This document shows positions 4,382 through 63,629 of a stretch of DNA of 64,000 nt, one piece after another (position 1 is the first letter of the stretch; every line of letters starts with the position of its first letter). Where the stretch lies: assembly GCA_963708295.1 (NCBI GenBank), contig CAVPSJ010000013.1, forward strand, positions 64,001-128,000, in the 5' to 3' direction. Below the pieces are notes generated by a model. It did not search any database, was not told the DNA's origin, and saw nothing but the letters and a program-made list of their open reading frames with translations. Position numbers and translations under genes: made by a program. The DNA is from an uncultured delta proteobacterium (lineage in GTDB: Bacteria; Desulfobacterota; BSN033; UBA1163).

Positions 4382-4470
4382 AGAGACGGAAGATGGGAGT
4401 CGTCAGACGAGGTGCAATAAGCGGAAGACGCACGAGGGAGGCTTCCGTCCGCGGTCCTCGATCCTCTGTC
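4382..4470. repeat. Inverted heptamer-array hairpin between wzm and wzt
   Basis: Left agagacg-gaagatg-ggagtcg-tcagacg; right cttccgt-ccgcggt-cctcgat-cctctgt (degenerate complement). Confidence 0.5.
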
Positions 4471-4483
4471 AGAGGTATCCTTC

Positions 4484-5771
4484 ATGAGTGATATTACAAT
4501 TCGCGTTGAGAATCTAGGCAAGCGCTATCGCATCGGACAGCGGGAACCCTACAAGACTCTGCGCGATGCCGTGACAGATGCTATTTACCGTGCGTTTCCG
4601 AAAGGGGAGAAAAAAAAATCTTCCAATCCAGCAATCTGATTTCCGAGATCCAAAATCAGATTACATCTGGGCATTAAAGGATGTTTCCTTTGAGATCGAG
4701 CAAGGTGAGGTAGTAGGCGTGATCGGCCGAAACGGAGCAGGCAAAACCACTCTGCTTAAAATCCTTTCTCGTACGACTGAGCCGACCGAAGGCTACGCCG
4801 AGATCAACGGTCGGGTAGGTTCTCTTCTGGAAGTAGGTACTGGTTTCCATCCCGAACTCACCGGCAGGGAAAACATTTACTTGAATGCAGCCATCTTGGG
4901 AATGAAGAGGCGGGAAATCGACCGGAAGTTCGATGAAATTGTGGACTTTGCGGAGGTAGAGAAATTCTTAGACACACCGGTGAAGCATTACTCAAGTGGC
5001 ATGTACGTCCGCCTTGCTTTTGCCGTAGCAGCCCATCTGGAGCCAGAGATATTGATAGTGGACGAGGTCCTGGCAGTGGGTGATACCCAATTTCAGAAAA
5101 AGTGTTTGGGAAAAATGGGGGATGTAGCCAAAGGGGGTCGAACGGTCTTGTTTGTGAGTCATCAAATGGGGGCTATCGCTCAATTGTGTAGCAAGGCCCT
5201 TCTCTTAAGCAAAGGGAATGTTGCGAAGGCAGGAGATGCACAGCGGGTCATTGACTATTATCTAAGCGATACATTATCGGCAAGCAAGAATGAATTTACT
5301 GCGGGTGCAAACTGTGAGAAAGATATGTTTGTTGCTAAGGTGCAAGCGTTAAATTCCGGAGGAGGAGTAACGTCCCATTTTTCTCATCAAGAAAAAATAA
5401 CTATTGCCATCTCTTATAAAATAAATAAATGGATATCTGATGTGAATATTGGTTTTTTTGTAAGGGACACAAGAGGCAGAAGAGTATTTACGACTGAAAA
5501 TAGGGAATGGGATAATGTGAAGGTGGAAGAACAGGAATTATACGTAACCGTTACAATACCCTCTAACTTTTTAGTTCCGGGACAGTATTTGTTCACATTT
5601 TTTGTAAGTGTTCCTAGGATAAGATTTGTTGATTGGGTAGAAGATGTCCTATCGATTACTATCGTTGATACCGGCTCAAGGTTTTTAATGTATGAAGGCG
5701 GTGACTACGGTTGTGTTTTTGCTGATTGTAAGTGGAATGTTGGGATTGGAAAACGCTTGTCTGAAAGCTGA
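4484..5771 (+). CDS. wzt: Polysaccharide ABC transporter ATPase with C-terminal Wzt_C-type domain, frameshift near 4620
   Basis: MSDITIRVENLGKRYRIG at 4484; WALKDVSF, Walker A GRNGAGKTT, YSSGM signature, ILIVDEVLAVGD; extra beta-rich C-terminal domain with LVPGQY. Confidence 0.9.
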
Positions 5772-5900
5772 TGATTGAAACATAGCAACCGAGTACCGGA
5801 AGAACGTTTTAGGGCGGATGAGTTAATGGCTCATAGAATGGAAAATGGCCAGGGCTTAAATTTATTGGGATTATTTTACAAAAGGGTTAGAACAATATTC

Positions 5901-6858
5901 ATGAATATACTTTCGCGGCAGGCGACGTCGTCGTTCAAATGACAAAGACATTTACTCTCTTTACCAACGGTTACTCGAGCGGCAACCTGATCCGGATGAG
6001 TTGCTTCATTGGAAGACTACGGGGGCCAAGATTGATGATATTACGAATGCGCTTTTATTAAGCTACGAATATGAGCAGAAGAGAGTCAATCAACAAAGGG
6101 TTCTGGTTGATATTAAAAAATTCAAAATCTACGCGATGAAAAGTGACTCCGAAGTTGGGCGGGGCATTATTCAGTCACAGGTTTATGAGCCTCATGTCAC
6201 AAATATTTTAGCTGAAATCTTAAATCCAGGGGACGTTTTTCTGGATTTGGGAGCGAATATAGGCTATTTCTCGCTACTGGCAGCAAGCATTGTGCAGGCC
6301 TCTGGAAAAGTAATTTCATTTGAACCAAACACACAAAACCTGCAACTGTTCTATGCAAGTATTCTTGAAAATAAGTTGAAGAATATTATCGTTTATCCTT
6401 TGGCAGCCTCGGACAATGCTCGAATTATGAAACTTACGTCTTTCGGATCGAATGGGTTTCTAGAGATACCGCAGTCTGGTGTGGCAAATGCCCAGTATTT
6501 ACAATCGGTTACAGTTGATGAATTGCTTCGGAATGAAGGAAGGTTTAACGTAGTAAAAATGGACATCGAGGGCTATGAACCTCTTGCACTGAAGGGCATG
6601 GATAAAATCATAAAGAAGCACAAACCTATTATTCTTACGGAATTCAGTCCGTGGCACATTAAACACCGAACTCAAATCGAACCACAAGAGTATCTGAAAC
6701 AACTAACCCGGTATGGTTATGACCTTTATATTATTGAACCATCGGGATGTTCCACATTGGCTTCTGATACTGATTTTGTGATGGACTTCTGGGGAAAATT
6801 GGGCAACGATAAACAACATCTTGACCTGATCGCTCAACCCTTTGGACGGTCGACGTAA
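5901..6858 (+). CDS. FkbM-family methyltransferase (start uncertain)
   Basis: YEPHV, FLDLGANIGYFS, SFEPN, VKMDIEGYE; the same frame upstream of 6001 reads YQRLLERQPDPDE, so the start lies further 5' across a probable frameshift. Confidence 0.8.
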
Positions 6859-7050
6859 TTTCACCAACCGTCAGTTCCTCTAAAGCTGTAAACGAAATCG
6901 TTGTTTCGAATCGATTTTAGGGAAAAACGAAATAAGGTTATGAAGGTTGATCTCATACTCCCCTGAAGGTTGTATGAAGATTCAAAGGTAGTCTATGGCC
7001 TATGTTATTTTATTGTGGCAAACATAAAATGTTATACCTGGGACAAACCG

Positions 7051-7509
7051 ATGGCTGAAACGCTTGGTTCCCTGTGCGATAAGCTGATAATAGTAAAACT
7101 TAAACAATGGCACTCCGAAGATCCAGTTCGTCTTGAGAGCCTGGCTGCCCAGGAAATACAACTCCAGACTGAGATTAGTGAATTCGTTGCTGACGCCATT
7201 TCTGGAAAAATTTGTCTCGATCGCCTGACCTTTGCTGCTAATAAAGTATACGAGGAAGAAAAACATATTGTTCCCGATGTCACGGGAAACATCGGAACGG
7301 TTTTTTCGAAGCTTGCCGATGTCAATTGTGCGTTATGGCACGAACAGGAAAAAGTTTACGAATTTGAAAAGGTGCCCTTGGATGAGAAAGACGAGGTTGT
7401 CAAGAAGCTTGCCCTTCTTAATCTCCAACGTAACAAATGTATCGATCGGATTAATAGGCAGTTTCATTCATATATTGAAAAGATACGAAGAGGTGACGAA
7501 AATGAGTAG
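7051..7509 (+). CDS. Helical protein resembling DUF4254 (apparently permuted)
   Basis: MAETLGSLCDKLIIVKLKQWH and NCALWHEQE...LNLQRNKCIDRIN motifs. Confidence 0.55.
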   Translation: MAETLGSLCDKLIIVKLKQWHSEDPVRLESLAAQEIQLQTEISEFVADAISGKICLDRLTFAANKVYEEEKHIVPDVTGNIGTVFSKLADVNCALWHEQEKVYEFEKVPLDEKDEVVKKLALLNLQRNKCIDRINRQFHSYIEKIRRGDENE

Positions 7510-9765: not shown

Positions 9766-11547
9766 ATGCAATCAGCATTAAACACCAGAAATTCAGCCAC
9801 TAAGAGTATCCTGATCATATCGCACAAGGAACAACGCTGTGGTGTGTACCAATATGGGCGGAACATTGCTGACGCGCTTAGAAAATCAAAGAAATATTCT
9901 TTTAGATATGCTGAGTGTTCAGGGGTAAATGAGTTTTCATCAATAGTAGACAGTGTCGGGCCCGCGGCGATCATTTACAATTATTACCCATCGACGCTCC
10001 CGTGGTTAAAAAGGAAAAATATCCGAAAGATTAAGGTTCCGCACATTGGTATTATTCATGAAGTGACGCAACAAGCAGCGGATTCGGCAGATGGGTCTTT
10101 TTTTCAGTATCATATAGCGGCAGACCCGACCTTATTGCTAAAGAACCCCGTGGTTTATAAAACAGGTAGACTTATACCGAAATATTCAAATATTTATGAT
10201 TTGCCCGGAATACCCACGATTGGCAGTTTTGGGTTTGGAACTGCAGGCAAAGGGTTTGAGACGCTGATCTCAACTGTACAAAAAGAATTTGATAAAGCCA
10301 TCATCAGATTGCATATTCCTTTTGCTGCCTTCGGAGATTCGGATGGGAGTGAAGCGCGCGCGATTGCGAAGCGATGTAAAGAACTCATTCTCAAGCCCGG
10401 TATTGAATTATTGCTGAGCCACGATTTTCTTAGTCAGGAGCAATTGTTAGATTTTCTCGCGAAGAATTCGATGAATGCGTTTTTCTACGAAAAAAACAAG
10501 GGACGTGGGATTTCCAGCGTGATAGATTATGCGCTCGCCGTGCAAAGGCCTATCGCAATCACAAAGAGCAATATGTTCCGTCATATCTATTCAACGTTTC
10601 CTTCAATATGTATTGAAGACGCAAGTTTGAAAGAAATAATGAATCACGGGATTGAGCCGCTGCTGAAATATTGTCGGGATTGGAATGAGGAAAACCTTAT
10701 TTGGGATTACGAGAGAATTGTCGGCAAAGTGCTCCTTACAAAGCGGATATCCGCTCCTGTCCAATTTATGAATAGGGTGAAGAAAGCCCTTCGAGGTTTT
10801 GAAACAGAGAGAATGAGGGAGTTTTGGATCCCGGCGATAAACGAGGTAGATGCTGGAATAAGGACAGTTGAGAGCGGTCGATATTCAGTCTCTTCCATTC
10901 CTGATGTCATTTCATTTAACCGTATACTAGACAAGGCTGCACGGGAGCAGTACAAACCCGTCATCGACGACTTGTTTGACGTTCTTCCTGAGATGATGGC
11001 GCACAAGATACCCGAAGCAAATATCCAGCAGGCATTTGTCCTTGATTCAGTGCTTAAGTTTGCCCTCGGCTCTGCATCTCCCAAAATACTATGTGTCGGC
11101 AGCTATGGGGACACTGCCGCCGCGGCCTTAAAAAGACTTGGTCACAAGATGGACGAGGTTGATCCAGTGCTTAATTATGACCTAGGGACGTTTATGCACA
11201 AACCGTCTACGATCAAAGGGAGTTATGATATCATCTTTTCAACCTCCGTCATTGAGCATGTGGAAAAGGATGAATTGTTTATTACCCAGATTGCCTCGCT
11301 GCTCGCTCCAGGTGGAGTTGCAATCCTTACCGTTGACTTCAACGACCAATACAAACCAGGAGCCCCCATTCCTCACGAAGATTTTCGTCTGTATACTCAG
11401 AAAGATTTCAAGGAAAGACTGCTGCCCCTTTTGAAAGATTGTTCGCTTGTCGACGCGCCCCAGTGGGATTGTCCGAACCCTGATTTTACCTATGCTGGGT
11501 GTCGGTATACTTTTGCGACGCTTGTTTTTAGAAAAAATATGGCATGA
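9766..11547 (+). CDS. Two-domain protein: GT-B-like N-terminus plus class I SAM methyltransferase C-terminus
   Basis: CGVYQYG, IGSFGF...KGFE and GISSVIDYALAVQRPI (GT4-like); C-terminal YDIIFSTSVIEHV...LLAPGGVAILTVDF. Confidence 0.65.
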   Translation: MQSALNTRNSATKSILIISHKEQRCGVYQYGRNIADALRKSKKYSFRYAECSGVNEFSSIVDSVGPAAIIYNYYPSTLPWLKRKNIRKIKVPHIGIIHEVTQQAADSADGSFFQYHIAADPTLLLKNPVVYKTGRLIPKYSNIYDLPGIPTIGSFGFGTAGKGFETLISTVQKEFDKAIIRLHIPFAAFGDSDGSEARAIAKRCKELILKPGIELLLSHDFLSQEQLLDFLAKNSMNAFFYEKNKGRGISSVIDYALAVQRPIAITKSNMFRHIYSTFPSICIEDASLKEIMNHGIEPLLKYCRDWNEENLIWDYERIVGKVLLTKRISAPVQFMNRVKKALRGFETERMREFWIPAINEVDAGIRTVESGRYSVSSIPDVISFNRILDKAAREQYKPVIDDLFDVLPEMMAHKIPEANIQQAFVLDSVLKFALGSASPKILCVGSYGDTAAAALKRLGHKMDEVDPVLNYDLGTFMHKPSTIKGSYDIIFSTSVIEHVEKDELFITQIASLLAPGGVAILTVDFNDQYKPGAPIPHEDFRLYTQKDFKERLLPLLKDCSLVDAPQWDCPNPDFTYAGCRYTFATLVFRKNMA

Positions 11548-12416
11548 AAGCGATAATTTTCGGTGCAAACGGCCAGGACGGACATTATTTGAGTGAACTA
11601 TGCAAGCTCAAAACAATAGAGCCGATAGGGGTTTCGCGCTGTGGCAATTGGGTGCGAGGTGATGTATCGAATTATAAGCAGGTTGAACAATTAATCAAAG
11701 AGCATAAACCGACCTATATTTTTCATGTCGCTGCAAAGTCAACAACACGTCATGACGCACTTTTTGAAAATCACGAAACAATTTCCACAGGCACGCTTAA
11801 CATCCTCGAGGCCGTTAGACTTCATAGCCCAACAGCGAAAATATTTATTACAGGGAGCGGCGTTCAGTTTGAAAATAAAGGGGCCCCGATTTCAGAAGTC
11901 GATAAATTTGATGCGAATAGCCCATACGCTGTCGCACGTATTCAGTCGGTATATGCAGCTCGATATTATCGTTCGCTCGGATTAAGGGTGTACGTCGGTT
12001 ATTTATTTCATCATGAAAGTCCGCTTCGTAAAGCCCATCACGTCAGTAAAATAGTTGCGCTTGCCGCCCGTCGAATTGCTGATGGCGGCAAGGAAATCAT
12101 CGAACTCGGTGATATTTCCGTTAAAAAGGAATGGACATTTGCGGGTGATGTAGCCGGGGGCATTTTTACGCTCATTGATCAGGATGATGTGTTTGAAGCC
12201 GTTATCGGCTCTGGTGTTGCATATACGATTGAAAATTGGCTTGAACAATGTTTTGGTATGATAGGGAAAGATTGGCATGATCACGTACGAATCCGAGAAG
12301 GATTTACACCTGAGTACAAATGCCTTGTTTCAAATCCTGGAACCATAAATTCCCTCGGTTGGTTCCCGGCTGTAGGGTTCCAAGAATTGACAAGAATGAT
12401 GATCGCTGCAATATGA
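11544..12416 (+). CDS. Gmd-like NAD-dependent epimerase/dehydratase
   Basis: IFGANGQDGHYL, SPYAVAR (YxxxR rather than YxxxK), LFHHESPLR, LGDISVKKEW. Confidence 0.8.
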   Translation: MKAIIFGANGQDGHYLSELCKLKTIEPIGVSRCGNWVRGDVSNYKQVEQLIKEHKPTYIFHVAAKSTTRHDALFENHETISTGTLNILEAVRLHSPTAKIFITGSGVQFENKGAPISEVDKFDANSPYAVARIQSVYAARYYRSLGLRVYVGYLFHHESPLRKAHHVSKIVALAARRIADGGKEIIELGDISVKKEWTFAGDVAGGIFTLIDQDDVFEAVIGSGVAYTIENWLEQCFGMIGKDWHDHVRIREGFTPEYKCLVSNPGTINSLGWFPAVGFQELTRMMIAAI

Positions 12417-30303: not shown

Positions 30304-31631
30304 TGAAGACCTTCACTCCCCGCGAGATTGTTTCTGAACTGGATAAGTACATTGTCGGCCAAAGGGATGCGAAGCGGGCGGTTGCGATTGCATTGAGAAA
30401 CCGTTGGAGACGTCAACAGGTTCCCGAACCTCTTCGGGATGAAATTGCCCCCAAGAACATCATCATGATTGGTCCCACAGGGGTGGGCAAGACGGAAATC
30501 GCTCGAAGGCTGGCGAAATTGGCCCAAGCTCCTTTCCTGAAGATTGAGGCCTCCAAATTTACGGAGGTCGGCTACGTCGGCAGGGATGTGGAGTCGATGA
30601 TCCGCGACCTCACAGAGCTGGCGGTCAATATGATGAAATCTGAGGAGTCACGTAAAGTCCAACAGAGAGCGGACGAGGTGGCTGAAGAGAGGCTCCTGGA
30701 TTTGCTCCTTCCCTCCCCGGGGAAAGGGGCGCCGAAGGAAGGCGAAGATCAGCGGCCCACCCGTGAAAAGCTTCGAAAGTTGCTGAAGGCCGGAAAATTG
30801 AATGATAAGTTTGTGGAAGTGGAGATTGTCGACCGAAACCTTCCCGTCGTGGAGATCTTTTCTGCTTCTGGATTGGAAGAAATGGATATCAACATTAAAG
30901 ACATGTTTGGAAGCCTCTTTCCGAAGAAGAAAAAGCAGAGAAAGGTCAAGGTCCCGGAGGCCCTCACGATTCTCTCCCAGGAAGAGGCGTATAAGCTGAT
31001 CGATATGGATTCGGTGATCAAACAAGCCGTTGAGCGGGTCGAACAATCAGGGATTATTTTTCTCGATGAAATCGACAAGATCGCCGGGAGAGAAAGCACG
31101 TTGGGTCCGGACGTGTCCCGGGAGGGCGTCCAAAGAGACATCCTCCCCATCGTGGAAGGGACCACCGTGACGACGAAATATGGGATGGTCAAGACAGACC
31201 ATATTCTATTTATCGCTGCCGGAGCCTTCCATGTTTCCAAGCCCTCGGATCTCATTCCTGAACTCCAAGGCCGTTTCCCGATCCGGGTGGAATTGGATTC
31301 TTTGGGGAAGACGGATCTCGTACGAATCCTCACCGAACCGGAAAACGCCTTGATCAAACAGTACAGCGCTCTGTTGGACACCGAGTCGGTCAAGGTGAAG
31401 TTTACGGAAAATGGTATCGCAGAGATCGCCGAAATGGCGGCTTTGATTAATGAAAGGACGGAGAACATTGGAGCCAGGCGGCTTTACACGATGATGGAGA
31501 AATTACTGGATGAGATTTCATTCGACGCCCCTGAGATGTCGGGAAAAGACATAGTGATCGATGTCCAGTATGTTCAAACGAAGCTAAGGGATTTCGTACA
31601 GGACGAAGACCTGAGCCGGTATATCTTATAA
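30303..31631 (+). CDS. hslU: ATP-dependent protease ATPase subunit
   Basis: [49 protein letters not shown]. Confidence 0.97.
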
Positions 31632-31736
31632 TGAGTTCGGAGTCGTGGGTAGCTCAAAGCTTAATGTTGAAGGCCGGATCTTGCCTTGAGCCTTGAACTT
31701 TCAGCCTTCAGCAGAAATGACCCCGAACGCTGAACT
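31632..31736. repeat. Inverted heptamer-array hairpin (nested) between hslU and argB
   Basis: Outer tgagttc-ggagtc / gaccccgaacgctgaact; inner gctcaaa-gcttaat-gttgaag / cttgagc-cttgaac-tttcagc-cttcagc. Confidence 0.7.
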
Positions 31737-32640: not shown

Positions 32641-32650
32641 AATAACAAAG

Positions 32651-32796
32651 TCGAAGCACGAAATCCCTGCCATCGCGCAGGCAGGCGAAATTCGAAACAA
32701 GCACGAATTTTTGAAATAAAAATTTCCAAAACGGAGAGTTTAAAGATTTGAACAGTTGAATTTGTTTCGGGATTCGATATTCGGATTTCGGATTTT
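32651..32796. repeat. Inverted heptamer-array hairpin between argB and argD with nested CCTGCC..GGCAGG palindrome
   Basis: cgaagca-cgaaatc-[cctgccatcgcgcaggcagg]-cgaaatt-cgaaaca / tgtttcg-ggattcg-atattcg-gatttcg. Confidence 0.8.
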
Positions 32797-32813
32797 TCTG
32801 TAAGGGAGTGACC

Positions 32814-34010
32814 ATGGATTCTCAAACCTTGATGATGTTATCTGAACAGGTTGTGGCCAATACCTATGCCCGCTATCCCGTTGTTCTTGTCAGAGGGAAG
32901 GGAACTCGGGTCTGGGATTTGGAAGGAGAAGAATACCTTGATTTTTTGTCAGGCCTGGCGGTCTGCAATTTAGGGCACTGCCATCCAAGAGTGGTCAAGA
33001 CCATTCAAGAACAAGCAGAGAAGTTGATTCATGTTTCAAACTTCTATTATATCGAACCGCAGATCCAACTCGCTTCGCTTCTATGTAAGCATTCCTTTGC
33101 GGATAAAGTCTTCTTCTGCAATAGCGGGGCCGAAGCCAACGAGGGAGCGATCAAATTGGCCCGGAAATATGCAAAAGAGAAGGTCGGGAAAGACCGGTAT
33201 GAAATCATCACCATGGAGCGTTCCTTTCACGGAAGAACTCTGGCGACCCTGACGGCAACGGGCCAAGAGAAGTTCCACAAAGGTTATGACCCTCTGATGC
33301 CCGGGTTTAGGTATGTTCCCTTCAACGACATCGGGGCAGTGAAACATGCCATCGGACCCGGAACGTGCGCTGTCATGGTGGAACCCATCCAGGGAGAGGG
33401 AGGGGTGAATTGCCCATCCGAAGGTTACCTGAAAGCCCTTCGGGAGATCTGTGACGAAAAGAAGCTCCTCCTCATCTTTGATGAAGTCCAGGTGGGAATG
33501 GGCCGGACCGGGAAGCTTTTCGCTTATGAGCACGAAAGGGTTGAACCGGATGTCCTTACGCTTGCAAAATCATTGGCAGGAGGAGTTCCTATCGGAGCTT
33601 TGTTGATCAAAAAGGGAGTTGCAGATAGTTTCAAGCCTGGGGATCATGCCTCCACCTTTGGGGGAAACCCCCTGGCCAGCGCAGCAGGTGTGGCCGCCTT
33701 GACGGCGATATTGGAAGAGGGGATGTTGGAAAATTGCCAAAAGATGGGAGACTACTTCTTCGCTGAGCTTGACAAGACGAAGAATAAGTTTCCTTTCATA
33801 AAAGAGGTTCGGGGGAAAGGTTTGATCTTGGGCATGGAACTGAAGATAGAGGGGGGGGCTATCGTTAAGGAGATGTTGAAGAAAAGAATTCTCATCAACT
33901 GCACAATGGGAAATGTTCTCCGGTTCCTCCCCCCTCTGATTGTCACCCAGGAAGAAGTCGACCGGGTCGTCACAGCATTGGAAGAAGTCTTAGAAGGGTT
34001 GAAGTTATGA
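32814..34010 (+). CDS. argD: Acetylornithine aminotransferase
   Basis: CNSGAEANE, FHGRT, EPIQGEGG, FDEVQ.G.GRTG, AKSLAGG, STFGGNP. Confidence 0.95.
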   Translation: MDSQTLMMLSEQVVANTYARYPVVLVRGKGTRVWDLEGEEYLDFLSGLAVCNLGHCHPRVVKTIQEQAEKLIHVSNFYYIEPQIQLASLLCKHSFADKVFFCNSGAEANEGAIKLARKYAKEKVGKDRYEIITMERSFHGRTLATLTATGQEKFHKGYDPLMPGFRYVPFNDIGAVKHAIGPGTCAVMVEPIQGEGGVNCPSEGYLKALREICDEKKLLLIFDEVQVGMGRTGKLFAYEHERVEPDVLTLAKSLAGGVPIGALLIKKGVADSFKPGDHASTFGGNPLASAAGVAALTAILEEGMLENCQKMGDYFFAELDKTKNKFPFIKEVRGKGLILGMELKIEGGAIVKEMLKKRILINCTMGNVLRFLPPLIVTQEEVDRVVTALEEVLEGLKL

Positions 34011-34072
34011 GTTCGGAGTTGAGAGTTCGGAGAAGAGAATTGACTCCGAACCCCGAGCTAATGACTCCGAAC
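34008..34072. repeat. Inverted heptamer-array hairpin between argD and argG
   Basis: gagttcg-gagttga-gagttcg-gag / ctccgaa-ccccgag-ctaatga-ctccgaa-ct; overlaps the argD stop codon. Confidence 0.8.
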
Positions 34073-34100
34073 TGAATTACCTTTCAACAAAGGAGGCAAC

Positions 34101-35306
34101 ATGAAAGGCGGGGTTAAGAAGGTCGTCCTGGCTTACTCCGGGGGTTTGGACACCTCGATCATTTTGAAATGGTTGAAAAATGAGTTCGGGTGTGAGGTCA
34201 TTGCTTTTACTGCCGACGTCGGACAGGCGGAAGAGATTGATCATTTAGAAGAAAAGGCGATTGCCACGGGTGCCAGTAAAGTCTACATCGAAGATCTGAG
34301 AGAGGAGTTCGTCCGGGATTACGTTTTTACAGCGATCAAGGCGAACGCCGTGTATGAAGGAACTTATCTCCTCGGCACGTCGATCGCCCGGCCTTTGATT
34401 GCCAAAAGGCAAGTGGAGATCGCCCAGTTAGAGGGGGCCGATGCGGTGTCCCATGGGTCCACGGGGAAGGGGAATGACCAAGTCCGGTTTGAATTGACAT
34501 ACTATGCCCTGAATCCTTACATCCGGGTGATCTCTCCCTGGAGGGAGTGGCAATATAAGTCGAGAGAGGATTTAATCGCCTATGCCCGAGAGAACGGGAT
34601 CCCCGTTCCTGTGACAAAGGAGAAACCCTATTCGTCCGACCGAAATCTCCTGCACATCAGCTTTGAAGGAGGGATTCTGGAGGACCCCTGGTCCGAACCC
34701 TCAGAGGATATGTTTATCCTCTCCGTTTCTCCGGAAAAGGCCCCGGACCGTCCCACCTATATTGAAATTGATTTCAAGAACGGGGTTCCGGAACGGATTG
34801 ACGGCAAGGCCCTTTCTCCGGCGGCCCTCCTGTCCCGTTTGAATGAACTGGGAGGTCGAAACGGAATCGGCCGGGTGGATATGGTGGAGAACCGCTATGT
34901 TGGAATGAAATCAAGAGGAGTCTATGAGACTCCGGGGGGGACTATCCTTCACGTCGCCCACCGAGCGATCGAATCGATCACGATGGACAGAGAGGTCATG
35001 CATCTCCGAGATAGCTGGATTCCGAAGATAGCGGAGATGATCTATTATGGGTACTGGTTTTCACCCGAGATGGAGATTTTGAAGAATGCAATCGATGAAA
35101 CGCAGAGGGACGTGACCGGGACGGTTCGCCTGAAGCTCTACAAAGGGAACTGTACGGTGGTCGGGAGGAAGTCTGAAAAATCGCTCTATCATGGGGCCTT
35201 TGCCACCTTTGAAAAAGATACCGTTTATAATCAGAAGGATGCCGAGGGATTTATCCGGCTTAATGCCTTAAGACTTCGAATCCGAAGGATGATGAGAGAT
35301 AAGTAA
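34101..35306 (+). CDS. argG: Argininosuccinate synthase
   Basis: [35 protein letters not shown]. Confidence 0.97.
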
Positions 35307-35402
35307 GTTCGGAGTTGGGAGTAAAGAATAAGAAATGATCATTAGGAGATGAGAACTGGGAAGGTAGAGTTTCTCCGAGCTAAGACCGCCGAGTTTTGAG
35401 CT
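35305..35402. repeat. Degenerate heptamer-array hairpin between argG and leuS
   Basis: aagttcg-gagttgg-gagtaaa / ctccgag-ctaagac-cgccgag-ttttgag-ct. Confidence 0.55.
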
Positions 35403-38024: not shown

Positions 38025-38036
38025 TCGGAAAACAAA

Positions 38037-38315
38037 ATGCGGAATGTGGAATTCGGAATTCGGAATTTAAATTCGCAATCATCCAGCACTGATAGATTGA
38101 AAAGAAATGTCCCTTCAATGTCACTCCTGCGAAAGCGGGAGTCCAGAAGTTCAAGGGACGAGGTTCTCCACATCAAGTGCGGAGTGTACCTGGCGAAGTT
38201 TATCCCGTTGAAGAAGGGCGTAGAAATGACATCCCGGAGTCCGAGGGGGGATTTCCAGTGGCCAGCGAATCTCATTGTAAAAAGACCCCGTATTCCGCGC
38301 TCCGCATTCCGAAAT
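38037..38315. repeat. Inverted heptamer-array element with nested REP-like palindrome
   Basis: atgcgga-atgtgga-attcgga-attcgga / accccgt-attccgc-gctccgc-attccga; interior tgtcactcctgcgaaagcgggagtccag...gaaatgaca. Confidence 0.8.
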
Positions 38316-39030: not shown

Positions 39031-39035
39031 CATCT

Positions 39036-40927: not shown

Positions 40928-42100
40928 ATGTCTTTTTGGACAGAAAAAAGTAAAATTGTCGTTACCTGCGCGAAAGGCGTGACGCCTTTCTTAAAACAGG
41001 AGGTCCTTTCCTTAGGATTCTCAGTCCTCTCGGAGGGAAGGGCGGAGGTTGAGACAGAGGGGACGATGACGGACACGCTGAGGCTCAACCTGTCGATTCG
41101 AACGGGGCAGCGGGTTCTTTTCCTAGTTGATTCTTTCAATGTGAAGACTCCGGACGAACTATACCGAAGGATCTCGCGAATCAAATGGGAAGATTATATT
41201 CCAGAGGAGAGCTATTTCTCTGTGACATCTTCCGTCCATAATCCGACCATCAAAGATTCAAGATATCCGAATGTGAAATGCAAGGATGCGGTGGTGGACA
41301 GGATTAAAGATAAGCGGGGACGCAGGCCGGATACCGGTCCGGAAAGAGACAGGGCCGTAATTCATCTTTACTGGAGGGGAAATCTCGGCCAGGTATATCT
41401 GGATACCTCCGGGGAACCCCTTTCGAAGCGCGGATATCGAATGATTCCTCTGAAGGCACCGATGCAGGAGACCCTTGCAGCGGCAGTGGTTTTGGCAACC
41501 GGCTGGACGGGAAGCGGGAATTTTATCAATCCGATGTGCGGGAGCGGGACGCTTGCCATAGAGGCAGCATTGATCGGTCTCGGCAGGGCTCCGGGTTTAT
41601 TAAGAAGCAATTTTGGTTTCATGCATCTGAAAGGTTTTGACGAATCCTCCTGGAAAGCCCTTCGAAGGAAGGCAAGGGCAGAGGCCAAGGATAGGCTAGA
41701 CGGAAGAATGATTGCTACGGATATCAGCCAGCAGGCGGTTGAGGCGGCCAAGAAGAATGCCATGACAGCAGGGGTCGAACGATTCGTCGAGTTTGGTGTT
41801 TGTGATTTTTCGGAAACCCCCGTCCCGGATCAAGGAGGAGTGGTCGTCCTGAATCCCGAATACGGAGACCGGATGGGTGAAATCGGAGGGCTGGCAGGGA
41901 CCTACCGGGGGATTGGGGATTTTCTCAAAAAGAAATGTCATGACTATCGGGGGTATGTATTTACCGGTAATCTCGACCTGGCCAAAAAAGTGGGGTTGAG
42001 GACAAAAAGAAGAATTCTTTTTTACAACGGCCCCATTGAGTGTCGACTGTTGGAGTACGATTTGTATGAAGGGAGTCGAAAAGGAGTATTGCAAACTTAG
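40928..42100 (+). CDS. THUMP-domain RNA methyltransferase (RlmL/UPF0020-like)
   Basis: LDTSGEPLSKRGYR, APMQETLAAA, NPMCGSGTLAIEAA, LNPEYG. Confidence 0.88.
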   Translation: MSFWTEKSKIVVTCAKGVTPFLKQEVLSLGFSVLSEGRAEVETEGTMTDTLRLNLSIRTGQRVLFLVDSFNVKTPDELYRRISRIKWEDYIPEESYFSVTSSVHNPTIKDSRYPNVKCKDAVVDRIKDKRGRRPDTGPERDRAVIHLYWRGNLGQVYLDTSGEPLSKRGYRMIPLKAPMQETLAAAVVLATGWTGSGNFINPMCGSGTLAIEAALIGLGRAPGLLRSNFGFMHLKGFDESSWKALRRKARAEAKDRLDGRMIATDISQQAVEAAKKNAMTAGVERFVEFGVCDFSETPVPDQGGVVVLNPEYGDRMGEIGGLAGTYRGIGDFLKKKCHDYRGYVFTGNLDLAKKVGLRTKRRILFYNGPIECRLLEYDLYEGSRKGVLQT

Positions 42101-42236
42101 CATTGCAAAGTTAGCATTGTGCCTGAACCCGAACACTGTCTGGGAGTTTCTGGTTTCCTGCCTTCTCAGGAATGACACCGTAAGAAATGAATGATTTCAA
42201 TTTAAAGTGCTAAATGCTAATTCTCCAATTTGCAGT
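42088..42236. repeat. Inverted heptamer-array hairpin upstream of holA
   Basis: attgcaa-acttagc-attgcaa-agttagc / gtgctaa-atgctaa-ttctcca-atttgca; left arm supplies the upstream stop; half-REP ...caggaatgac inside. Confidence 0.7.
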
Positions 42237-42251
42237 GGTTTTTGAGGGAAG

Positions 42252-43775: not shown

Positions 43776-43840
43776 CGAATGATAACGAATTTGCCGAATT
43801 TGGGTTTATTCGCTGCATTCGCTGCACTTCGCCTTATTCG
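43776..43840. repeat. Inverted roughly 9-mer array hairpin in the murJ leader
   Basis: cgaatgataa-cgaatttgc-cgaat / attcgctgc-attcgctgc-acttcgcctt-attcg; ends 4 nt before the murJ ATG. Confidence 0.65.
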
Positions 43841-43844
43841 AAGT

Positions 43845-47633: not shown

Positions 47634-47641
47634 AAAACTCC

Positions 47642-47670
47642 TTGCAGTTTCCAACAAATTGGGTTAATCT
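47642..47670 (+). promoter_or_regulatory. Putative rpmB promoter
   Basis: TTGCAG-N17-TAATCT. Confidence 0.5.
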
Positions 47671-47698
47671 AATAAAATCAAATTTTTGAGGTTCGATT

Positions 47699-47890
47699 AT
47701 GGCCAGGGTTTGCGAGATCTGCGGAAAAGGACCGGTTTTTGGGCATAACGTAAGTCATGCCAACAACAAGACGCGAAGAGTCTGGTACCCCAACTTGCAT
47801 AAGATAAAGGCTTCGGTAAAGGGAAAGACCACTCGAATGAGAATTTGTTCGAGATGCCTTCGAACGGGATTGGTCACCAAGGCCGCCTAG
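47699..47890 (+). CDS. rpmB: 50S ribosomal protein L28 (Cys-containing type)
   Basis: [37 protein letters not shown]. Confidence 0.96.
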
Positions 47891-47900
47891 CAAAGATGTA

Positions 47901-47993
47901 AGTCATGGTGTCTCATCGTCGCGTCGTCTTATCGTCCGACAGTTCTTGGAGCAGATGACTACAAGTCCCGACGACTACGGGACGACGTGACTA
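47901..47993. repeat. Inverted 8-mer array hairpin between convergent rpmB and rel
   Basis: gtcatggt-gtctcatc-gtcgcgtc-gtcttatc-gtc / gacgacta-cgggacga-cgtgacta. Confidence 0.6.
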
Positions 47994-47999
47994 TTCGAG

Positions 48000-50171: not shown

Positions 50172-50242
50172 TGGATAAACCCATCTTACTCGTAACTATT
50201 AGAAAATTCAAGGGGGTTGTTCCCTCGGTCTCAGAAAAACCT

Positions 50243-50271
50243 TTGACAGTGACTAAAATAGAATCTATAAT
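50243..50271 (+). promoter_or_regulatory. Consensus sigma70 promoter for the ABC exporter operon
   Basis: Exact TTGACA-N17-TATAAT. Confidence 0.85.
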
Positions 50272-50304
50272 AATTTCCTTTATGTGTGAGATTAAGAGGG
50301 CAGA

Positions 50305-51310: not shown

Positions 51311-51346
51311 TGCCAATGGTTTCATGAAAATAATAATTGTATCCTT

Positions 51347-51540
51347 AAATTCCAAATCACAAATTCCTGAGTCCGAATCTCGAATGGCCTCCTCACCCCA
51401 CCCTCTCCCCTCAGGGGAGAGGGAAGGGGGAGGGGTTTTGAAATTTTGAATTTTGGACACTGGAATTTATTTGGTATTTGGCCTGCCTGCGCGAAGCCCC
51501 CGCCCTGCGGGGCGGAGGCAGGTGCTTGGAATTTGGTGCT
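51347..51540. repeat. Inverted heptamer-array element with two nested palindromes
   Basis: aaattcc-aaatcac-aaattcc / ggtattt-gg[insert]tgctt-ggaattt-ggtgctt; nested ccctctcccctcaggggagaggg and cctgcct...ccgccctgcggggcgg..aggcagg. Confidence 0.75.
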
Positions 51541-51547
51541 TGCTCCT

Positions 51548-52486
51548 ATGCTCTCCATTCAAACCACCCATCTGACCAAGTCTTTCGAATCATTGACCGC
51601 TGTCAAAGATTTGAGCCTGGAAGTTAAAACAGGCGAGATTTTTGGCCTGGTCGGTCCGGACGCCTCCGGGAAAACGACGACACTCCGGATGTTATGCGGG
51701 ATTCTTCCTCCGGACGGAGGAGAGGCAACGGTAGCAGGATGTGACATTCGGAAAGAGACAGAGTCTCTGAAAGAAAAGGTCGGTTATCTTCCCCAGCGCT
51801 TTGGACTCTACGGGGATCTCACCGTTCTTGAAAACATCCATTTCTACGGAGACCTCTATCAAGTCCCGAAGGAGAGAAGAAAGGAACGTATCGAAAGGCT
51901 CCTTCAATTTGCCAACCTGAAACCCTTCGGGAAACGGAAGGCCCAGGATCTTTCGGGTGGGATGAAACAGAAACTGGGACTGATCTGTGCGTTGATCCAT
52001 ACGCCTGAAATCCTTTTCCTCGATGAACCCACCACGGGAGTCGATCCTCTGTCCCGGAGGGATTTCTGGATCTTCCTTTACGATCTACTGAAAGAAGGGG
52101 TGACGATCCTTTTCTCAACTTCCTATCTGGATGAAGCCGAGCGTTGCAGTCGTGTCGGCCTGATTTATCAGGGAGACCTGTTGATCGCGGATACACCTTC
52201 TTCGATAAAGGCCCGAATCGGAGGGACGATCCTTGAACTGCGGGTCGAGAACCACCAGAGAGGGATGAAAGTCCTTGAAGGGATCGAGTTCATTCGGAGT
52301 CTGGTCTTATCCGGGGACAAGATCCATATCCTTGTCGATGATTCGGAAAAAGCCGAAAACGTGGTCCGAGAGGTGCTTAAAGAGCAAAGGATGGAGATCC
52401 TCGATCTCGTGGTGGTCCGTCCTTCGCTGGAAGACGCTTTTGTCTCCATTGTCCAAAAAAGGCAAAGGAATAATGCTGAGTTGTGA
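51548..52486 (+). CDS. ABC transporter ATP-binding protein (YbhF N-half-like)
   Basis: GPDASGKTT, LSGGMKQKL, LFLDEPTTGVDP. Confidence 0.9.
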   Translation: MLSIQTTHLTKSFESLTAVKDLSLEVKTGEIFGLVGPDASGKTTTLRMLCGILPPDGGEATVAGCDIRKETESLKEKVGYLPQRFGLYGDLTVLENIHFYGDLYQVPKERRKERIERLLQFANLKPFGKRKAQDLSGGMKQKLGLICALIHTPEILFLDEPTTGVDPLSRRDFWIFLYDLLKEGVTILFSTSYLDEAERCSRVGLIYQGDLLIADTPSSIKARIGGTILELRVENHQRGMKVLEGIEFIRSLVLSGDKIHILVDDSEKAENVVREVLKEQRMEILDLVVVRPSLEDAFVSIVQKRQRNNAEL

Positions 52487-52558
52487 GTTAAGAATGATGA
52501 ATTATTTTATAACTCATCATTCTTACTTAACTCATCGCTCTGAACTGAGAACTCAGTA
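52474..52558. repeat. Inverted heptamer-array hairpin between the two ABC ATPase genes
   Basis: tgctgag-ttgtgag-ttaagaa-tgatgaa / ctcatca-ttcttac...ctctgaa-ctgagaa-ctcagta. Confidence 0.8.
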
Positions 52559-52560
52559 CC

Positions 52561-55785: not shown

Positions 55786-55801
55786 GAACCATAAATTTAT
55801 A

Positions 55802-55828
55802 CGCTATGCTCTATGCGCTTGGCGCTAT
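55802..55828 (+). repeat. Single-arm heptamer array upstream of the TtcA-family gene
   Basis: cgctatg-ctctatg-cgcttgg-cgctata. Confidence 0.5.
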
Positions 55829-55840
55829 ACGGCTTAAAAG

Positions 55841-59305: not shown

Positions 59306-59801
59306 ATGGGGTGGATCAAAGCCCAGAAGATAATACATCGTTTAAACTTTTCCGTTGCAGTTGTTGGGATGTCCTTTACTCATTCCGCTGATGTTGCTCA
59401 CCACAGGGGATATCATCGGCAGAAAATTTTTTAGCTAAAACCATCCCCGGGACCTTCGAGATATCCGAATATATCTTGGCAGTCTTCATCCTGCTGGGTG
59501 CCGCCTACACCCAGCAGGTGAAGGGACATGTGGGAGTTGACTTTCTTACCTCCCGGCTATCTCCCCGTGTTCAAATCTGCCTGCGAGATTATTACCACCT
59601 TGCTCAGTTTATTCATTATCGGTATTGTGGTATGGCAGGGCTGGGTAGAGGGGATCGGAGAAAGAGCTGTTTCAGACATGCTGAGAATTCCCCAATATCC
59701 ATTCCGACTCCTCGTTGCAGTCGGAGGTTTTCTTCTATGGCTGGAGCTTCTGATTGACCTCTTGATCTCAATAGGAAAACTCAAAGGGAGGGAAAGTGTG
59801 A
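59306..59801 (+). CDS. TRAP transporter small permease DctQ, frameshifted
   Basis: ATG 59306 after gaggag; IPGTFEISEY, LGAAYTQQVKGHVGVDFL, LRIPQYPF. Confidence 0.75.
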
Positions 59802-61110
59802 ATCCCGTCACCGTTGGGATATTGGGCAGTGTCCTGCTCGTTTTCCTTTTATTTCTTGGTATGCCCATCGCTTTTGTTATGATGTTTGTAGGATTTCTGG
59901 GCATTAGTTATTTGGCTTCCGCCAACGCGGCATTGCCCGTTGTGGCTAAAACGGTCTATGAGACTGCTGCCCATTACCCCTACACCATCATCCCTCTCTT
60001 TATCCTGATGGGAGGATTTGCTGGAAACGCAGGGATTACCAGGGAACTTTACCAATCTTTTGATAAATGGTTTAGGAAGACTACCGGGGGGATTGGGTAT
60101 TGCAACCATTGCTGCCTGTGCCTGTTTTGCCGCTTTAAGCGGGTCTTCGGTGGCCGCTGCAGCGGCCATGGGGACAGTTGCTATTCCGGAGATGAGACGC
60201 TTCAATTATGCGCCGAAATTGGCTGTCGGGAATGGTGGCTGCGGGCGGCACCCTCAGCTTTCTCATTCCGCCGAGTCTTGGGTTTCGTCGTCTATGGGAT
60301 GCTCACCGAACAATCGATCGGAAAACTTCTGATTTCCGGCATCTTTCCCGGCCTCCTTCTATCCTTGGCCTTCATGGCATCATCGTCGTTGAGGTAAAAA
60401 TGGATCCGAGTTTGGCCCCAGCGACTCCTGGTGAGGTGAGTCTGGAAGGAGAAGCTCCTGGCCTTTTCAGGAGTGTGGGAGACATTGCTCGTATTTTTCA
60501 TCGTCATGGGCGGAATCTACCTCGGTTTTATCAATCCGACGGAGGCCGGGGCGATCGGCGCGACCGCCCTCTTTCTCATCGCTCTTTTGAAAAGGAAATT
60601 AAGTTTTCGCAATCTTTCTGCCTCGTTACTGGAAGCGGTTCGGATTTCAGTATTAGTTCTTTTTCTTGTGGCAGGGGCAAACGTTTTCAGCTATTTTCTT
60701 GCCCTCTCGACCATCCCGATGGCAGTATCTTCCTGGATGGCAGGGCTTGCGGTCTCCCGATATGTCATCCTCTCTATCATTATCATTATTTATTTGATCC
60801 TGGGCTGTTTCCTGGATGCGATTTCCATGATGGTGTCTGACCATGCCCGTCATCTTTCCTGTCGTTAAGGCATTGGGTTTTGATCCAATCTGGTTCGGGG
60901 TCATCTGCGTGATCATGATGGAGGCAGGGCTCATTACGCCGCCGGTGGGACTCAATGTGTACACCCTTGCCGGAGTCGTCAAAGACGTCCCCATGCAAAC
61001 GATCTTCCGCGGAGCGATGCCTTTTCTGATTGCCATGGTGGTCGTTCGTTTTGATCATCACGATTTTCCCAGAAATTGCCCTTTTCCTTCCCTCCATGAT
61101 GGGAAGGTAG
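59798..61110 (+). CDS. TRAP transporter large permease DctM, several frameshifts
   Basis: GMPIAF, IPLFILMG, SGSSVA, LIPPS, NPTEAGAIG, FDPIWFG, ITPPVGLN across several frames. Confidence 0.82.
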
Positions 61111-61117
61111 TTTATGA

Positions 61118-61255
61118 AAATCCGAAATCCTAAGTTCGTATTTTGAAGCAGCATCAAAATCCAGATTCACAATTTCAAAACATTTGTGGTTGGGTCATTT
61201 GTATTTTGAACATTCGAACGTGGGTTCGAATTTCATGCTTCGTAATTCGAATTTA
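61118..61255. repeat. Degenerate heptamer-array hairpin between dctM and mmsA
   Basis: aaatccg-aaatcct-aagttcg / tcgaatt-tcatgct-tcgtaat-tcgaatt. Confidence 0.65.
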
Positions 61256-61299
61256 TGACTTGAGTGGGATCAAATCATATGGATTGGAAAGGATCTGAG

Positions 61300-62815: not shown

Positions 62816-62819
62816 TTAA

Positions 62820-62983
62820 TTCGAAGTACAAAATCCGAAATTCGAAACAATATCAAATGACAAAAATTCAAAACTCAGAACAGTTTTATCTGCTTAGTCG
62901 AATTTCTAAGAAGTCGTTTTAGAGCGTTTGGTCATTTGAAAATTAGTGTTTGTTTCGGATTTCGATATTCGGATTTCGGATTT
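62820..62983. repeat. Inverted heptamer-array hairpin upstream of the 2Fe-2S subunit gene
   Basis: cgaagta-caaaatc-cgaaatt-cgaaaca / tgtttcg-gatttcg-atattcg-gatttcg; arms nearly the same as 32651-32796. Confidence 0.82.
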
Positions 62984-63010
62984 GGCGGTGCGACAACTAC
63001 AGTGGGATTG

Positions 63011-63463
63011 ATGGAGATCAAATTTACGCTCAATGGGAAAGTGATTGCGGTGGAGGTTCCCCCGCACTGGACGCTTCTGCGGCTCCTTCGGGAGAAGATC
63101 GGTCTCACCGGCACCAAAGAGGGGTGCGGGATCGGCGAGTGTGGAGCGTGCACCGTATTATTGGATGGAACTCCCGTAAATGCCTGTCTGGTCTTGGCTC
63201 CCAAGGTAGAGGGAAGAGAGGTTGAAACCATAGAAGGTCTTGGAAATCGAGAATCACTTCATCCACTACAGAAATCGTTTATCGACCATGGGGCGATCCA
63301 ATGCGGTTTCTGCACCCCCGGGGTATTGATATCGGCAAAGGCCCTGTTGGAGAAAAATCCAAGCCCTACGAGAGAGGACATCAACGAGGCGATCTCGGGC
63401 CATCTCTGCCGATGTACGGGTTACCATCAGATCATTGAAGCCATAGAAGCACTAAAAGAATAA
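63011..63463 (+). CDS. Xanthine dehydrogenase/CO dehydrogenase family small (2Fe-2S) subunit
   Basis: GTKEGCGIGECGACTV, QCGFCTPG, HLCRCTGY. Confidence 0.93.
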   Translation: MEIKFTLNGKVIAVEVPPHWTLLRLLREKIGLTGTKEGCGIGECGACTVLLDGTPVNACLVLAPKVEGREVETIEGLGNRESLHPLQKSFIDHGAIQCGFCTPGVLISAKALLEKNPSPTREDINEAISGHLCRCTGYHQIIEAIEALKE

Positions 63464-63465
63464 GT

Positions 63466-63629
63466 AGAAATGTCAAAGCTCAATATTCAAATGTCAAAGG
63501 AATGTCAAAGTTCAAAATCTTGTAAGTCAACCCTATCAGGGTTAATCGTCGTCGAGGCTGAAATCTCAAATCGCATGATTTGAACTTTGGAATTGATTTG
63601 AACTTTGAAGTTTTGTCACGTGGCATTCT
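63466..63629. repeat. Inverted heptamer-array hairpin between 2Fe-2S and FAD subunit genes
   Basis: aatgtca-aagctca-atattca-aatgtca / tgaactt-tgaagtt-ttgtcac-gtggcatt. Confidence 0.72.

Follow-up and report, generated by a model that had tools for sequence, protein, structure and literature searches.

The 64,000-nucleotide (nt) window analyzed here (C13:64001-128000, from contig CAVPSJ010000013.1 of assembly GCA_963708295.1, an uncultured delta proteobacterium) contains 15 gene junctions with arrays of short periodic units. A reading made from the sequence alone (below, the sequence-only reading) had described 14 of them as one family of hairpins, each with a left array, a spacer, and a complementary right array, and the one at 55802 as a solo arm. 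We examined these loci, the arrays of the same build across the genome, and their relationship to small genes of two families, 23S_rRNA_IVP (IVP; TIGR02436/PF05635) and GxxExxY (TIGR04256). The assembly comprises 4.95 Mb in 20 contigs at ~50% G+C and is 91% complete and 5.6% contaminated. Throughout, C4, C7, C13, and so on denote contigs, G000 the genome analyzed, G003 and the like related genomes, and L001 to L017 the loci of relatives.

Repeat loci in the window

Nearly all genes of the window lie on the plus strand, and relA/spoT lies on the minus strand. An O-antigen-type cluster is followed by xerC, hslVU, argB, argD, argG, leuS, efp, epmA, an rlmL-like gene, and holA, and then by murJ, relA/spoT, a HlyD/ABC (ATP-binding cassette) exporter, ttcA, TRAP (tripartite ATP-independent periplasmic) transporter genes, an MMSDH gene, and xdh-like genes. 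The loci are spacers between these genes; every one lies between protein-coding genes, none lies in an rRNA gene, and an Rfam search of the window at the gathering score gave no match. In the list below, the position by which we refer to a locus is given in brackets where it differs from the first coordinate. Matches at a lag are counted out of 21, z compares the minimum free energy (MFE) of the fold with 100 dinucleotide shuffles of the same locus, TRF is Tandem Repeats Finder, and family 1 is a dispersed element described further below.

4380..4484 (4382), no strand: Wzm>Wzt spacer; weak period 7 (14/21), z -0.1; a doubtful member
31629..31716 (31632), plus: hslU>argB spacer; GAGTTCG-type unit after the stop codon, and GCCTTGA-type units that pair with an upstream segment; lag 7 16/21, TRF period 7 at 31683-31712, z -0.6; decayed or composite
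32646..32797 (32651), plus: argB>argD spacer; family-1 copy (CGAAAT-type) in transcription orientation, with a GC-rich palindrome nested in the left arm (~32664-32686)
34008..34075, plus: argD>argG spacer; GAGTTCG / CGAACTC hairpin, its first unit sharing bases with the argD stop TGA; TRF period 7/14 at 34009, z -4.5
35304..35400 (35305), plus: argG>leuS spacer; decayed GAGTTCG-type hairpin directly after the stop TAA; lag 7 14/21, z 0.0
38036..38075 (38037), plus: AATKCGG array of 4.6 copies, 12 nt after the leuS stop; TRF period 7, 88%; lag 7 18/21; pairs locally only in the fold of 38025-38260 (z -1.4)
42085..42251 (42088), plus: rlmL-like>holA spacer; period-14 array ATTGCAAACTTAGC that supplies the upstream stop; TRF 94% matches
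43776..43835, plus: array upstream of murJ; 9-mers ATTCGCTGC and AATTTGC-like units; TRF period 9, lag 9 15/21; a hairpin is not supported by the fold (z -0.7)
47890..47999 (47901), no strand: convergent junction between a histidine kinase-like gene and relA/spoT; period-8 GTCNNNTC-type arms; lag 8 14/21; predicted 30-pair stem, not beyond shuffles (z -0.6)
51340..51560 (51347), plus: HlyD>ABC ATPase spacer; AAATTCC / GGAATTT-type hairpin with two nested GC-rich palindromes; inverted-repeat score 65 versus a shuffle maximum of 38, z -4.9
52470..52560 (52474), plus: ABC ATPase>ABC ATPase spacer; GAGTTRW-type hairpin whose array includes the upstream stop codon; 34 pairs, z -6.2; found also by the genome scan as inverted pair C13:116477-116534
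55786..55840 (55802), plus: spacer between an ABC permease gene and ttcA; solo array of GCGCTAT / AGCGCAT type; lag 7 16/21, z -0.3
61117..61256 (61118), minus: dctM>MMSDH spacer; family-1-related element inverted relative to transcription; z -3.0
62817..62987 (62820), plus: MMSDH>xdhC-like spacer; complete family-1 element oriented with transcription, starting 2 nt past the stop; z -3.5
63461..63625 (63466), plus: xdhC-like>xdhB-like spacer; AAATGTC / GACATTT-type hairpin; TRF periods 7 and 11 at 63468-63510, z -2.8

Over lags 5 to 11, the self-match at each of the 15 loci is best (13-18 matches of 21) at the period that the sequence-only reading had claimed, namely 7 at 13 loci, 9 at 43776, and 8 at 47901. 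Its further claim of a single hairpin architecture held in part. Six loci (34008, 51347, 52474, 61118, 62820, and 63466) fold well beyond their shuffles and two do so weakly (32651, z -1.6, and 38037), and the other seven are taken up in the Discussion. Some of the weak folds are decayed hairpins whose counterparts in relatives, at the same junction, are clean, as at argG>leuS, where L001, L004, L005, and L009 have clean GAGTTCG-type hairpins and the L016 copy is interrupted by another hairpin. Other weak folds are long-range stems around foreign inserts, as at 42088, where the predicted stem joins both ends through a complementary right arm (z only -0.7), the interior is unrelated sequence, and in L004 these arms surround another interior. 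The unit type of 34008 occurs at this junction also in L006, L009, and L016, other congeners differing there, and at 31632 congeners likewise have other arrays.

Arrays and inverted pairs across the genome

The genome was scanned for arrays in 21-nt windows with at least 16 self-matches, using a crude longest-ORF (open reading frame) map that splits it into 4.14 Mb of coding and 0.81 Mb of noncoding DNA. In the noncoding part, 218 windows were found at lag 7, 131 at lag 14, 86 at lag 8, and 46 at lag 6, compared with 6-19 at lags 4, 5, 9-13, and 15. An inverted partner (Smith-Waterman score of at least 24) lies within 1.5 kb of 185 of the 479 lag-7 arrays, compared with 26 in a displaced control and 93 for direct matches. 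The non-redundant inverted pairs number 110, and their spacers are bimodal, with 80 shorter than 150 nt, 7 of 150-400 nt, and 23 of 400-1500 nt. The period-7 excess and the inverted pairing are thus features of the whole genome.

The 479 lag-7 arrays reduce to 164 distinct consensus units, a count preferred as the measure of diversity, as single-linkage clustering merged all units into one cluster. This bears out the claim that the unit differs between loci; the companion claim, that the fold rather than the sequence is conserved, holds only in part, since several loci are members of families with conserved sequence, so that the loci make up several sequence families and not one class defined by its fold. 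Heptamer arrays have been proposed to be protein-binding or structure-forming DNA sites, such as regulator sites or G-quadruplex-type structures, in published accounts of Geobacter and Xanthomonas (PMC2700814, PMC4692102), and a regular spacing of units would suit repeated binding. For the arrays described here we regard this as highly improbable, as most units are A/T-rich and cannot form a G-quadruplex, 164 consensus units speak against a few regulators, and the sense-strand and ORF-orientation biases reported below indicate the transcript.

Among 81 hairpins, 64 lie between co-directional, 14 between convergent, and 3 between divergent genes (baseline junctions, 1368, 286, and 260 of 1914), and in 20 of the 64 co-directional cases the left array begins no more than 5 nt from the upstream stop or before it, both the junction classes and the stop distances being approximate because the gene calls are crude longest-ORF calls. 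The predicted enrichment at same-strand junctions is therefore slight, the location bias being mainly a depletion from divergent spacers; the figure of 20 of 64 is the genome-wide measure for the description of arms as lying at, or supplying, a stop codon. The purine-rich arm leads in 72 hairpins and trails in 8 (83 short-spacer pairs, 80 untied). Arm composition was dropped as a test of orientation relative to transcription, since a palindrome reads identically on both strands and agreement of polarity within a family is automatic; orientation was measured with a strand-specific profile instead, and the purine-first rule is retained solely as an intrinsic trait.

A gene-less element and its gene-bearing relatives

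Family 1 is a sequence of ~140 nt, conserved also in its non-repeat parts, that nhmmer finds at 120 loci of the genome; a search of 31 genomes of the class, G000 among them, gave matches in 28. Its members in the window are 32651 (C13:96646-96797; 88.9 bits on the plus versus 34.2 on the minus strand), 62820 (99.4 bits plus versus 50.0 minus), and, inverted, 61118 (C13:125117-125256; 57.0 bits minus versus 20.6 plus). Across the genome, 61 loci have family 1 in the orientation of transcription, ten of these being profile seeds, and 18 have it in the opposite one, with 12 ambiguous; for near-full-length copies the numbers are 47 and 14. Many copies end in TAAAT...ATTTA, and in such ends a TA duplication is indistinguishable from the palindrome itself. 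One family-1 hairpin lies directly beside the RNase III gene (C4:1013858-1014651).

The arms of family 1 are also those of an IVP cassette, that is, an IVP gene between inverted arrays, at C14:209986. The arms of 32651, which has an orthologous copy in L009, align to this cassette, and the two nested pairs of arms in 62820 can be aligned with those at C14:209986-210302; no gene remnant was found in the loop of 62820 in that comparison. Judged by these alignments and by their place in family 1, the hairpins at 32651, 61118, and 62820 appear to be relatives of IVP cassettes. Other units of the window recur in the same way: the GCGCTAT-type unit of 55802, present in 21 arrays of the genome, also flanks the IVP gene at C14:16572, the AAATGTC-type unit of 63466 flanks that at C13:219452, and GAGTTCG arrays flank an IVP gene in G003.

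The genome contains 15 TIGR02436 matches (~12-13 genes, some of them broken) and two GxxExxY genes. All 15 TIGR02436/GxxExxY places, read by eye, lie between inverted arrays, each with a unit of its own (AGGTTRA, GGAGACN, GATCAGT, GTGTCCG, GGACTGA, GCGCAKA, GTAGTCA, CAAAGGT, and others). A full cassette of ~430-800 nt consists of one short ORF between inverted 7- or 8-nt arrays, with the purine-rich arm first. The small ORFs matched 23S_rRNA_IVP (PF05635) in 9 of 9 cases and PDDEXK_3 (PF13366) in 2 of 2, and the nearest solved structure to IVP is the pentameric four-helix bundle XCC0516 (PDB 2gsc, E 2e-20). Within the window itself there is no TIGR02436 or TIGR04256 match, and its hairpins lack a PF05635/TIGR02436 ORF, in line with the observation of the sequence-only reading that none of them carries a gene. 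Larger ORFs that lie between like arrays (RNase HII, acyl-CoA dehydrogenase, S-adenosylmethionine hydroxide adenosyltransferase, an oxidoreductase, and a TIM-barrel protein) were considered as cargo and rejected as ordinary host genes bracketed by two junction hairpins. At C15:197600-208700, at least five IVP matches, two of them pieces of one split gene, lie within 11 kb among very long and complex arrays of TTCATTG / GGGTTAC type, possibly a hotspot of cassette accumulation.

The same architecture is found elsewhere. TIGR02436 matches are present in all 15 genomes of the genus, with 3-18 in each, and 34 of 40 IVP cassettes from three congeners have an arm score of at least 26. A cross-phylum set of 80 IVP loci, found via a three-sequence alignment, included Bacteroidota, Planctomycetota, Acidobacteriota, Cyanobacteria, Chloroflexota, Verrucomicrobiota, Clostridia, and others, and 79 had both flanks. 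An inverted-flank score of at least 28 was reached by 61 of these 79, whereas the best of 20 shuffles reached it in 6 of 79; loci with an array on each flank number 17 for lag 7, 33 for lag 8, and 0-3 for any other lag, and the upstream arm is more than 60% purine in 56 of the 61 cassettes. The cassette architecture is hence not confined to this lineage, and the association with TIGR02436 and GxxExxY genes that the sequence-only reading had suggested from other bacteria holds both here and across phyla.

Dispersed intergenic inverted doublets that also flank a small associated gene recall REP/REPIN-type (repetitive extragenic palindromic) elements, which are moved by a Y1 transposase (a REP-associated tyrosine transposase, RAYT, or an IS200-like one), and the genome has nine Y1_Tnp matches. 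The eight Y1_Tnp genes that were inspected have their own, different inverted repeats and not heptamer arrays, which instead flank IVP and GxxExxY genes. Since the flanks of the eight inspected Y1 genes differ, this does not look like a REP-RAYT system, and we find an origin of that type scarcely credible.

Gain, loss, and replacement among relatives

The hslV-murJ block is syntenic in 17 loci of relatives, and its spacers are not conserved. At argB>argD alone, at least five different unit types, or none, are found: the window and L009 have family 1; L001 has GAGTTCG; L002, L003, and L017 have CAAGGGGT; L004, L005, L008, L010, and L016 have the 8-mer GGAATAGT; L007 and L011 have other units; and L012 and L013, with spacers of 38 and 15 nt, have no element. 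The presence/absence variation that the sequence-only reading had predicted is therefore abundant. Together with the strand bias and the location bias, each of the three checks that it had named thus turned out in its favor.

Twenty-four of the 40 congener cassettes could be placed on a syntenic junction of G000. At these junctions G000 holds an intact IVP at three. At C11:124354-124913 it has a GxxExxY gene where G003 has an IVP, and at C4:69590-69898 it retains only the last 55 codons of the orthologous IVP of G003, with GAGTTCG arms (64% identity, E 1e-21). Arrays or a hairpin without an ORF stand at C7:54098-54198, C18:24463-24565, C7:65003-65156, and C8:311128-311280, and a bare 21-37-nt spacer, filled in two congeners, at C11:140396-140433. 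The truncated gene at C4:69590 marks the route by which a filled junction becomes empty and shows that an internal deletion can remove the ORF; together with the shared arms described above, this favors the view, put forward from the sequence alone, of the window hairpins as empty cassettes.

Cassettes also replace one another. The hairpin-only junction C7:54098 of G000 is occupied in three congeners by IVPs that fall into two unrelated types (23-28% identity) and differ in their arms, and the IVP of one of these congeners is 93% identical to a G000 IVP at another junction, both with GTGTCCG arms. More generally, pairs of cassettes at different sites that share arm 6-mers (n=10) have a mean protein identity of 0.66, compared with 0.29 for the other 682 pairs, and none of 2000 permutations was as extreme. 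Because protein identity co-varies with the arms, the gene and its arms travel as one unit.

It has been reported that heptamer simple sequence repeats are over-represented in bacteria (PMC4692102), and the arrays might have been born in place by polymerase slippage, with arms formed by local fold-back copying and no movement. The existence of 164 different units, and a two-unit (14-nt) insertion in the 35305 array in one metagenome contig, could be read in this way. We consider it very unlikely, given that one ~140-nt sequence, non-repeat parts included, is present at 120 loci, that gene and arms co-vary between different junctions, and that units are shared between junctions and between species and do not stem from the local flanks. 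The public runs were used as assembled contigs, the sole RNA run containing 0.05 of the words, and metagenome joints with short sides (e.g., 32636>34001) were ignored as probable repeat artifacts.

Long junction inserts in relatives that are not visibly flanked by arrays were left out of the cargo count. They are a 288-amino-acid (aa) ORF in L006, an opposite-strand pair of ORFs (150 and 64-97 aa) in L001, L004, and L010, and a 348-aa ORF in L011. A 3251-nt insert at rlmL>holA in L001 (G003), missing from the window and the other congeners, contains a 1037-aa ORF whose sequence looks like that of a fused restriction-modification enzyme, and the 1008-nt argD>argG gap of L014 looks by eye like argF.

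Signals at the level of the transcript

The cargo ORF has the same orientation as both flanking genes in all 52 co-directional cases (14 in G000 and 38 in congeners); three further cassettes lie between genes that are not co-directional. Of the 15 loci of the window, 13 have a sense RNA more stable than the antisense RNA, as do 41 of 64 co-directional hairpins of all types (Wilcoxon p=0.007) and 50 of 70 family-1 copies (mean, -41.7 versus -38.0 kcal/mol; p=8e-6). At 32651 the MFE is -42.3 for the sense and -30.8 for the antisense strand, with 14 and 1 G-U pairs, respectively. The strand bias that the sequence-only reading had named as a check is thus borne out as far as RNA stability is concerned; a direct count, considered in the Discussion, was not significant. 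Several of these results point to the transcript as the level of action.

Hairpins directly 3' of stop codons inside operons, with a more stable sense-strand RNA and a depletion from the divergent, promoter-bearing spacers (3 of 81 versus 260 of 1914), could also be host-serving RNA elements like the stem-loops of REP or bacterial interspersed mosaic elements (BIMEs), selected for differential mRNA stability, processing, or attenuation, with the IVP link being secondary. A scan for intrinsic terminators over 31000-50900 gave 37 sites (25.7 +/- 5.7 in shuffles), and among the junction hairpins of those 20 kb it flagged only a local piece of the right arm of 32651; within that stretch the hairpins do not look like classical intrinsic terminators. 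In addition, many copies in the window are decayed, and close relatives have unrelated units or none at the same junction (the 15-38-nt spacers of L012 and L013), which does not fit a conserved regulation. We therefore judge a host-serving role to be unlikely as the primary explanation.

Other features of the window

In the polysaccharide cluster, a single 605-aa ORF at 1517-3334 is a GDP-mannose 4,6-dehydratase fused to a GDP-fucose synthase, and the ORFs at 11544-12416 and 15219-16010 give only partial gmd profile matches, which suggests duplicated or truncated copies. A Wzt/TagH-like ABC ATPase gene is apparently split at 4484-4640: its ATG lies at ~4484, a run of nine A residues near 4612, and its first frame stops, by eye, near 4636, while a long ORF in another frame begins at 4578, and its match to the family profile does not start before position 28. 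The split may reflect slippage at the A run, an error of assembly, or a frameshift. The TRAP dctM gene (59528-61133), which has the family-1-related element directly 3' of it, is in at least three ORF pieces and is possibly a pseudogene. The epmA>rlmL spacer (40658-40927) contains a different dispersed repeat without the heptamer build, with 61 BLAST matches in the genome at ~90-97% identity over 37-190 nt, and the word depth in metagenome contigs is very high at 40767-41293 (2520 in X1 and 494 in X6).

Discussion

Our results lead us to propose, with a probability of roughly 60%, that the hairpins of the window are cargo-less members, similar to miniature transposable elements with inverted repeats (MITEs), and decayed remnants of selfish, co-transcribed cassettes of the intervening-sequence (IVS) type. 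A complete cassette carries one ORF, for either an IVS-type four-helix bundle (TIGR02436/PF05635, Avd-like) or a GxxExxY PD-(D/E)XK protein, between inverted arrays, and occupies a spacer of a host operon, very often directly 3' of a stop codon. This position, together with an ORF in the direction of host transcription, suggests that cassettes are transcribed within host mRNA. There, both arrays would pair to form a long imperfect stem from which the insert is looped out, and RNase III, whose gene (rnc) is present in the genome, may cut the stem as it does in ribosomal IVSs, so that the insert would be excised or the flanking cistrons would be separated. By analogy with the Coxiella 23S IVS, the hairpins are probably RNase III substrates. 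Copies without a gene might persist because a looped-out stem would be nearly harmless in an operon, and the build of tandem units would let the arms change length by whole units with pairing kept.

Several observations weigh against this proposal. In the window, seven loci (4382, 31632, 35305, 42088, 43776, 47901, and 55802) fold no better than their shuffles (z between 0 and -0.7), and at 4382, 38037, 43776, and 55802 there is an array and no convincing complementary arm. G-U-type mismatches exceed A-C-type mismatches by 362 to 325, which leans toward the sense strand and is not significant (p=0.17), and the approximate junction classes noted above add to the uncertainty. Neither a target-site duplication was recognized nor a transposase-like partner found, and the word mobile therefore describes comparative patterns only. 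Finally, two IVP genes whose arms belong to abundant unit types look broken, as the gene with family-1 arms, at C14:209986, is split between two frames and that with GCGCATA-type arms, at C14:16572, has an in-frame TGA, and the spread of hairpins thus need not require a resident cognate protein.

How the cassettes might move is a matter for speculation. A pentameric IVP, or a GxxExxY nuclease, might recognize its own array with about one unit per subunit, copy the cassette, and mobilize gene-less hairpins of the same unit in trans, an idea that we hold to be doubtful at present. If it were true, such recognition would make these elements a class of their own, mobile without a transposase, with protein lineages and repeat units diversifying together, and the widespread excess of heptamers in bacteria would be the footprint of that class. 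The suggestion, from the sequence-only reading, that the elements act as insertion platforms is an inference, the observations themselves being different cassettes at one junction and GC-rich palindromes nested in arms.

Nested palindromes of two types, CCTGCC...GGCAGG and CCCCTC...GAGGGG, lie in arms or loops of heptamer hairpins at 32664-32686, 51385-51440, and 51480-51520 of the window and also in L002-L005, L007, L009, L011, and L017. They recur in the genome, with 5 and 9 BLAST matches, the own locus of the query included.

Small palindromic repeats between genes, of the Correia, ERIC, and Nezha types, are known in bacteria. Family 1 resembles a MITE in being short, noncoding, and multicopy (~140 nt, 120 loci), with terminal inverted repeats, an intergenic and co-transcribed position, insertion polymorphism between relatives, and longer gene-bearing relatives. 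Unlike those of MITEs, these longer relatives encode an IVP or a PD-(D/E)XK protein and not a known transposase (no DDE), and the arms are internally periodic. REP/REPIN-RAYT elements are likewise dispersed palindromic doublets with copies that flank a small associated gene; in our case that gene is an IVP or GxxExxY gene rather than a Y1 transposase. The IVP protein has a homologous four-helix bundle in bAvd of diversity-generating retroelements, and four of nine IVP ORFs gave weaker bAvd matches, one reaching the curated cutoff, but cassettes of ~430-800 nt are too short for a reverse transcriptase or template/variable repeats, although no search was made for a reverse transcriptase gene in their vicinity.

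A close parallel is the IVS in 23S rRNA of Leptospira, Coxiella, and others. In Coxiella, according to the account of Warrier et al. (PMC4990558), tandem heptamers lie upstream of the S23p ORF in a strain-variable number, RNase III cuts the inverted-repeat stem, and an older suggestion of the IVS as a mobile element is cited. The cassettes described here share with these IVSs an ORF of the same family (PF05635) in the sense of the host transcript and inverted repeats that form a stem. In contrast, they lie in protein-coding operons rather than in rRNA helices, most copies lack an ORF, each arm is an entire array of 7- or 8-mers, with many unit types, some cassettes carry a PD-(D/E)XK GxxExxY gene, and cutting by RNase III is proposed by analogy.

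Intergenic tandem heptamer arrays have been described as GGGAATC in Xanthomonas (70-75 inverted pairs), GGGGAYT in Nostoc, TAACTGA in Beggiatoaceae, and heptanucleotide elements in Geobacter (PMC4692102, PMC4679880, PMC2700814). As presented in those accounts, the Xanthomonas arrays are often convergent inverted pairs and lengths vary in close relatives, as they do here, whereas there is one unit per genome, interpreted as a G-quadruplex, translational, or regulator site. Apart from their supplementary tables, the accounts make no tie to IVP genes or mobile cassettes. Already published, so far as these accounts extend, are therefore the IVS with its S23p ORF, the intergenic heptamer excess, the inverted pairs of Xanthomonas, and the arrays of Beggiatoaceae, cyanobacteria, and Geobacter. 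In a literature search that most subscription journals lay outside of, we found no description of operon IVP/GxxExxY cassettes with array arms, of their gene-less derivatives, of the co-variation of gene and arms, or of the strict co-orientation.

If our proposal is true, it would unite the rRNA IVS and its enigmatic S23p ORF, the intergenic heptamer excess, and the large paralogous TIGR02436/GxxExxY families as aspects of a widespread selfish cassette that lives within transcripts and leaves gene-less hairpins behind. The 30-year-old proposal of IVS mobility gains a testable comparative footing, and candidate RNase III sites inside operons are offered. These findings also call for caution in annotation, since in genomes of this kind insertions of these elements supply many stop codons and short spacers.

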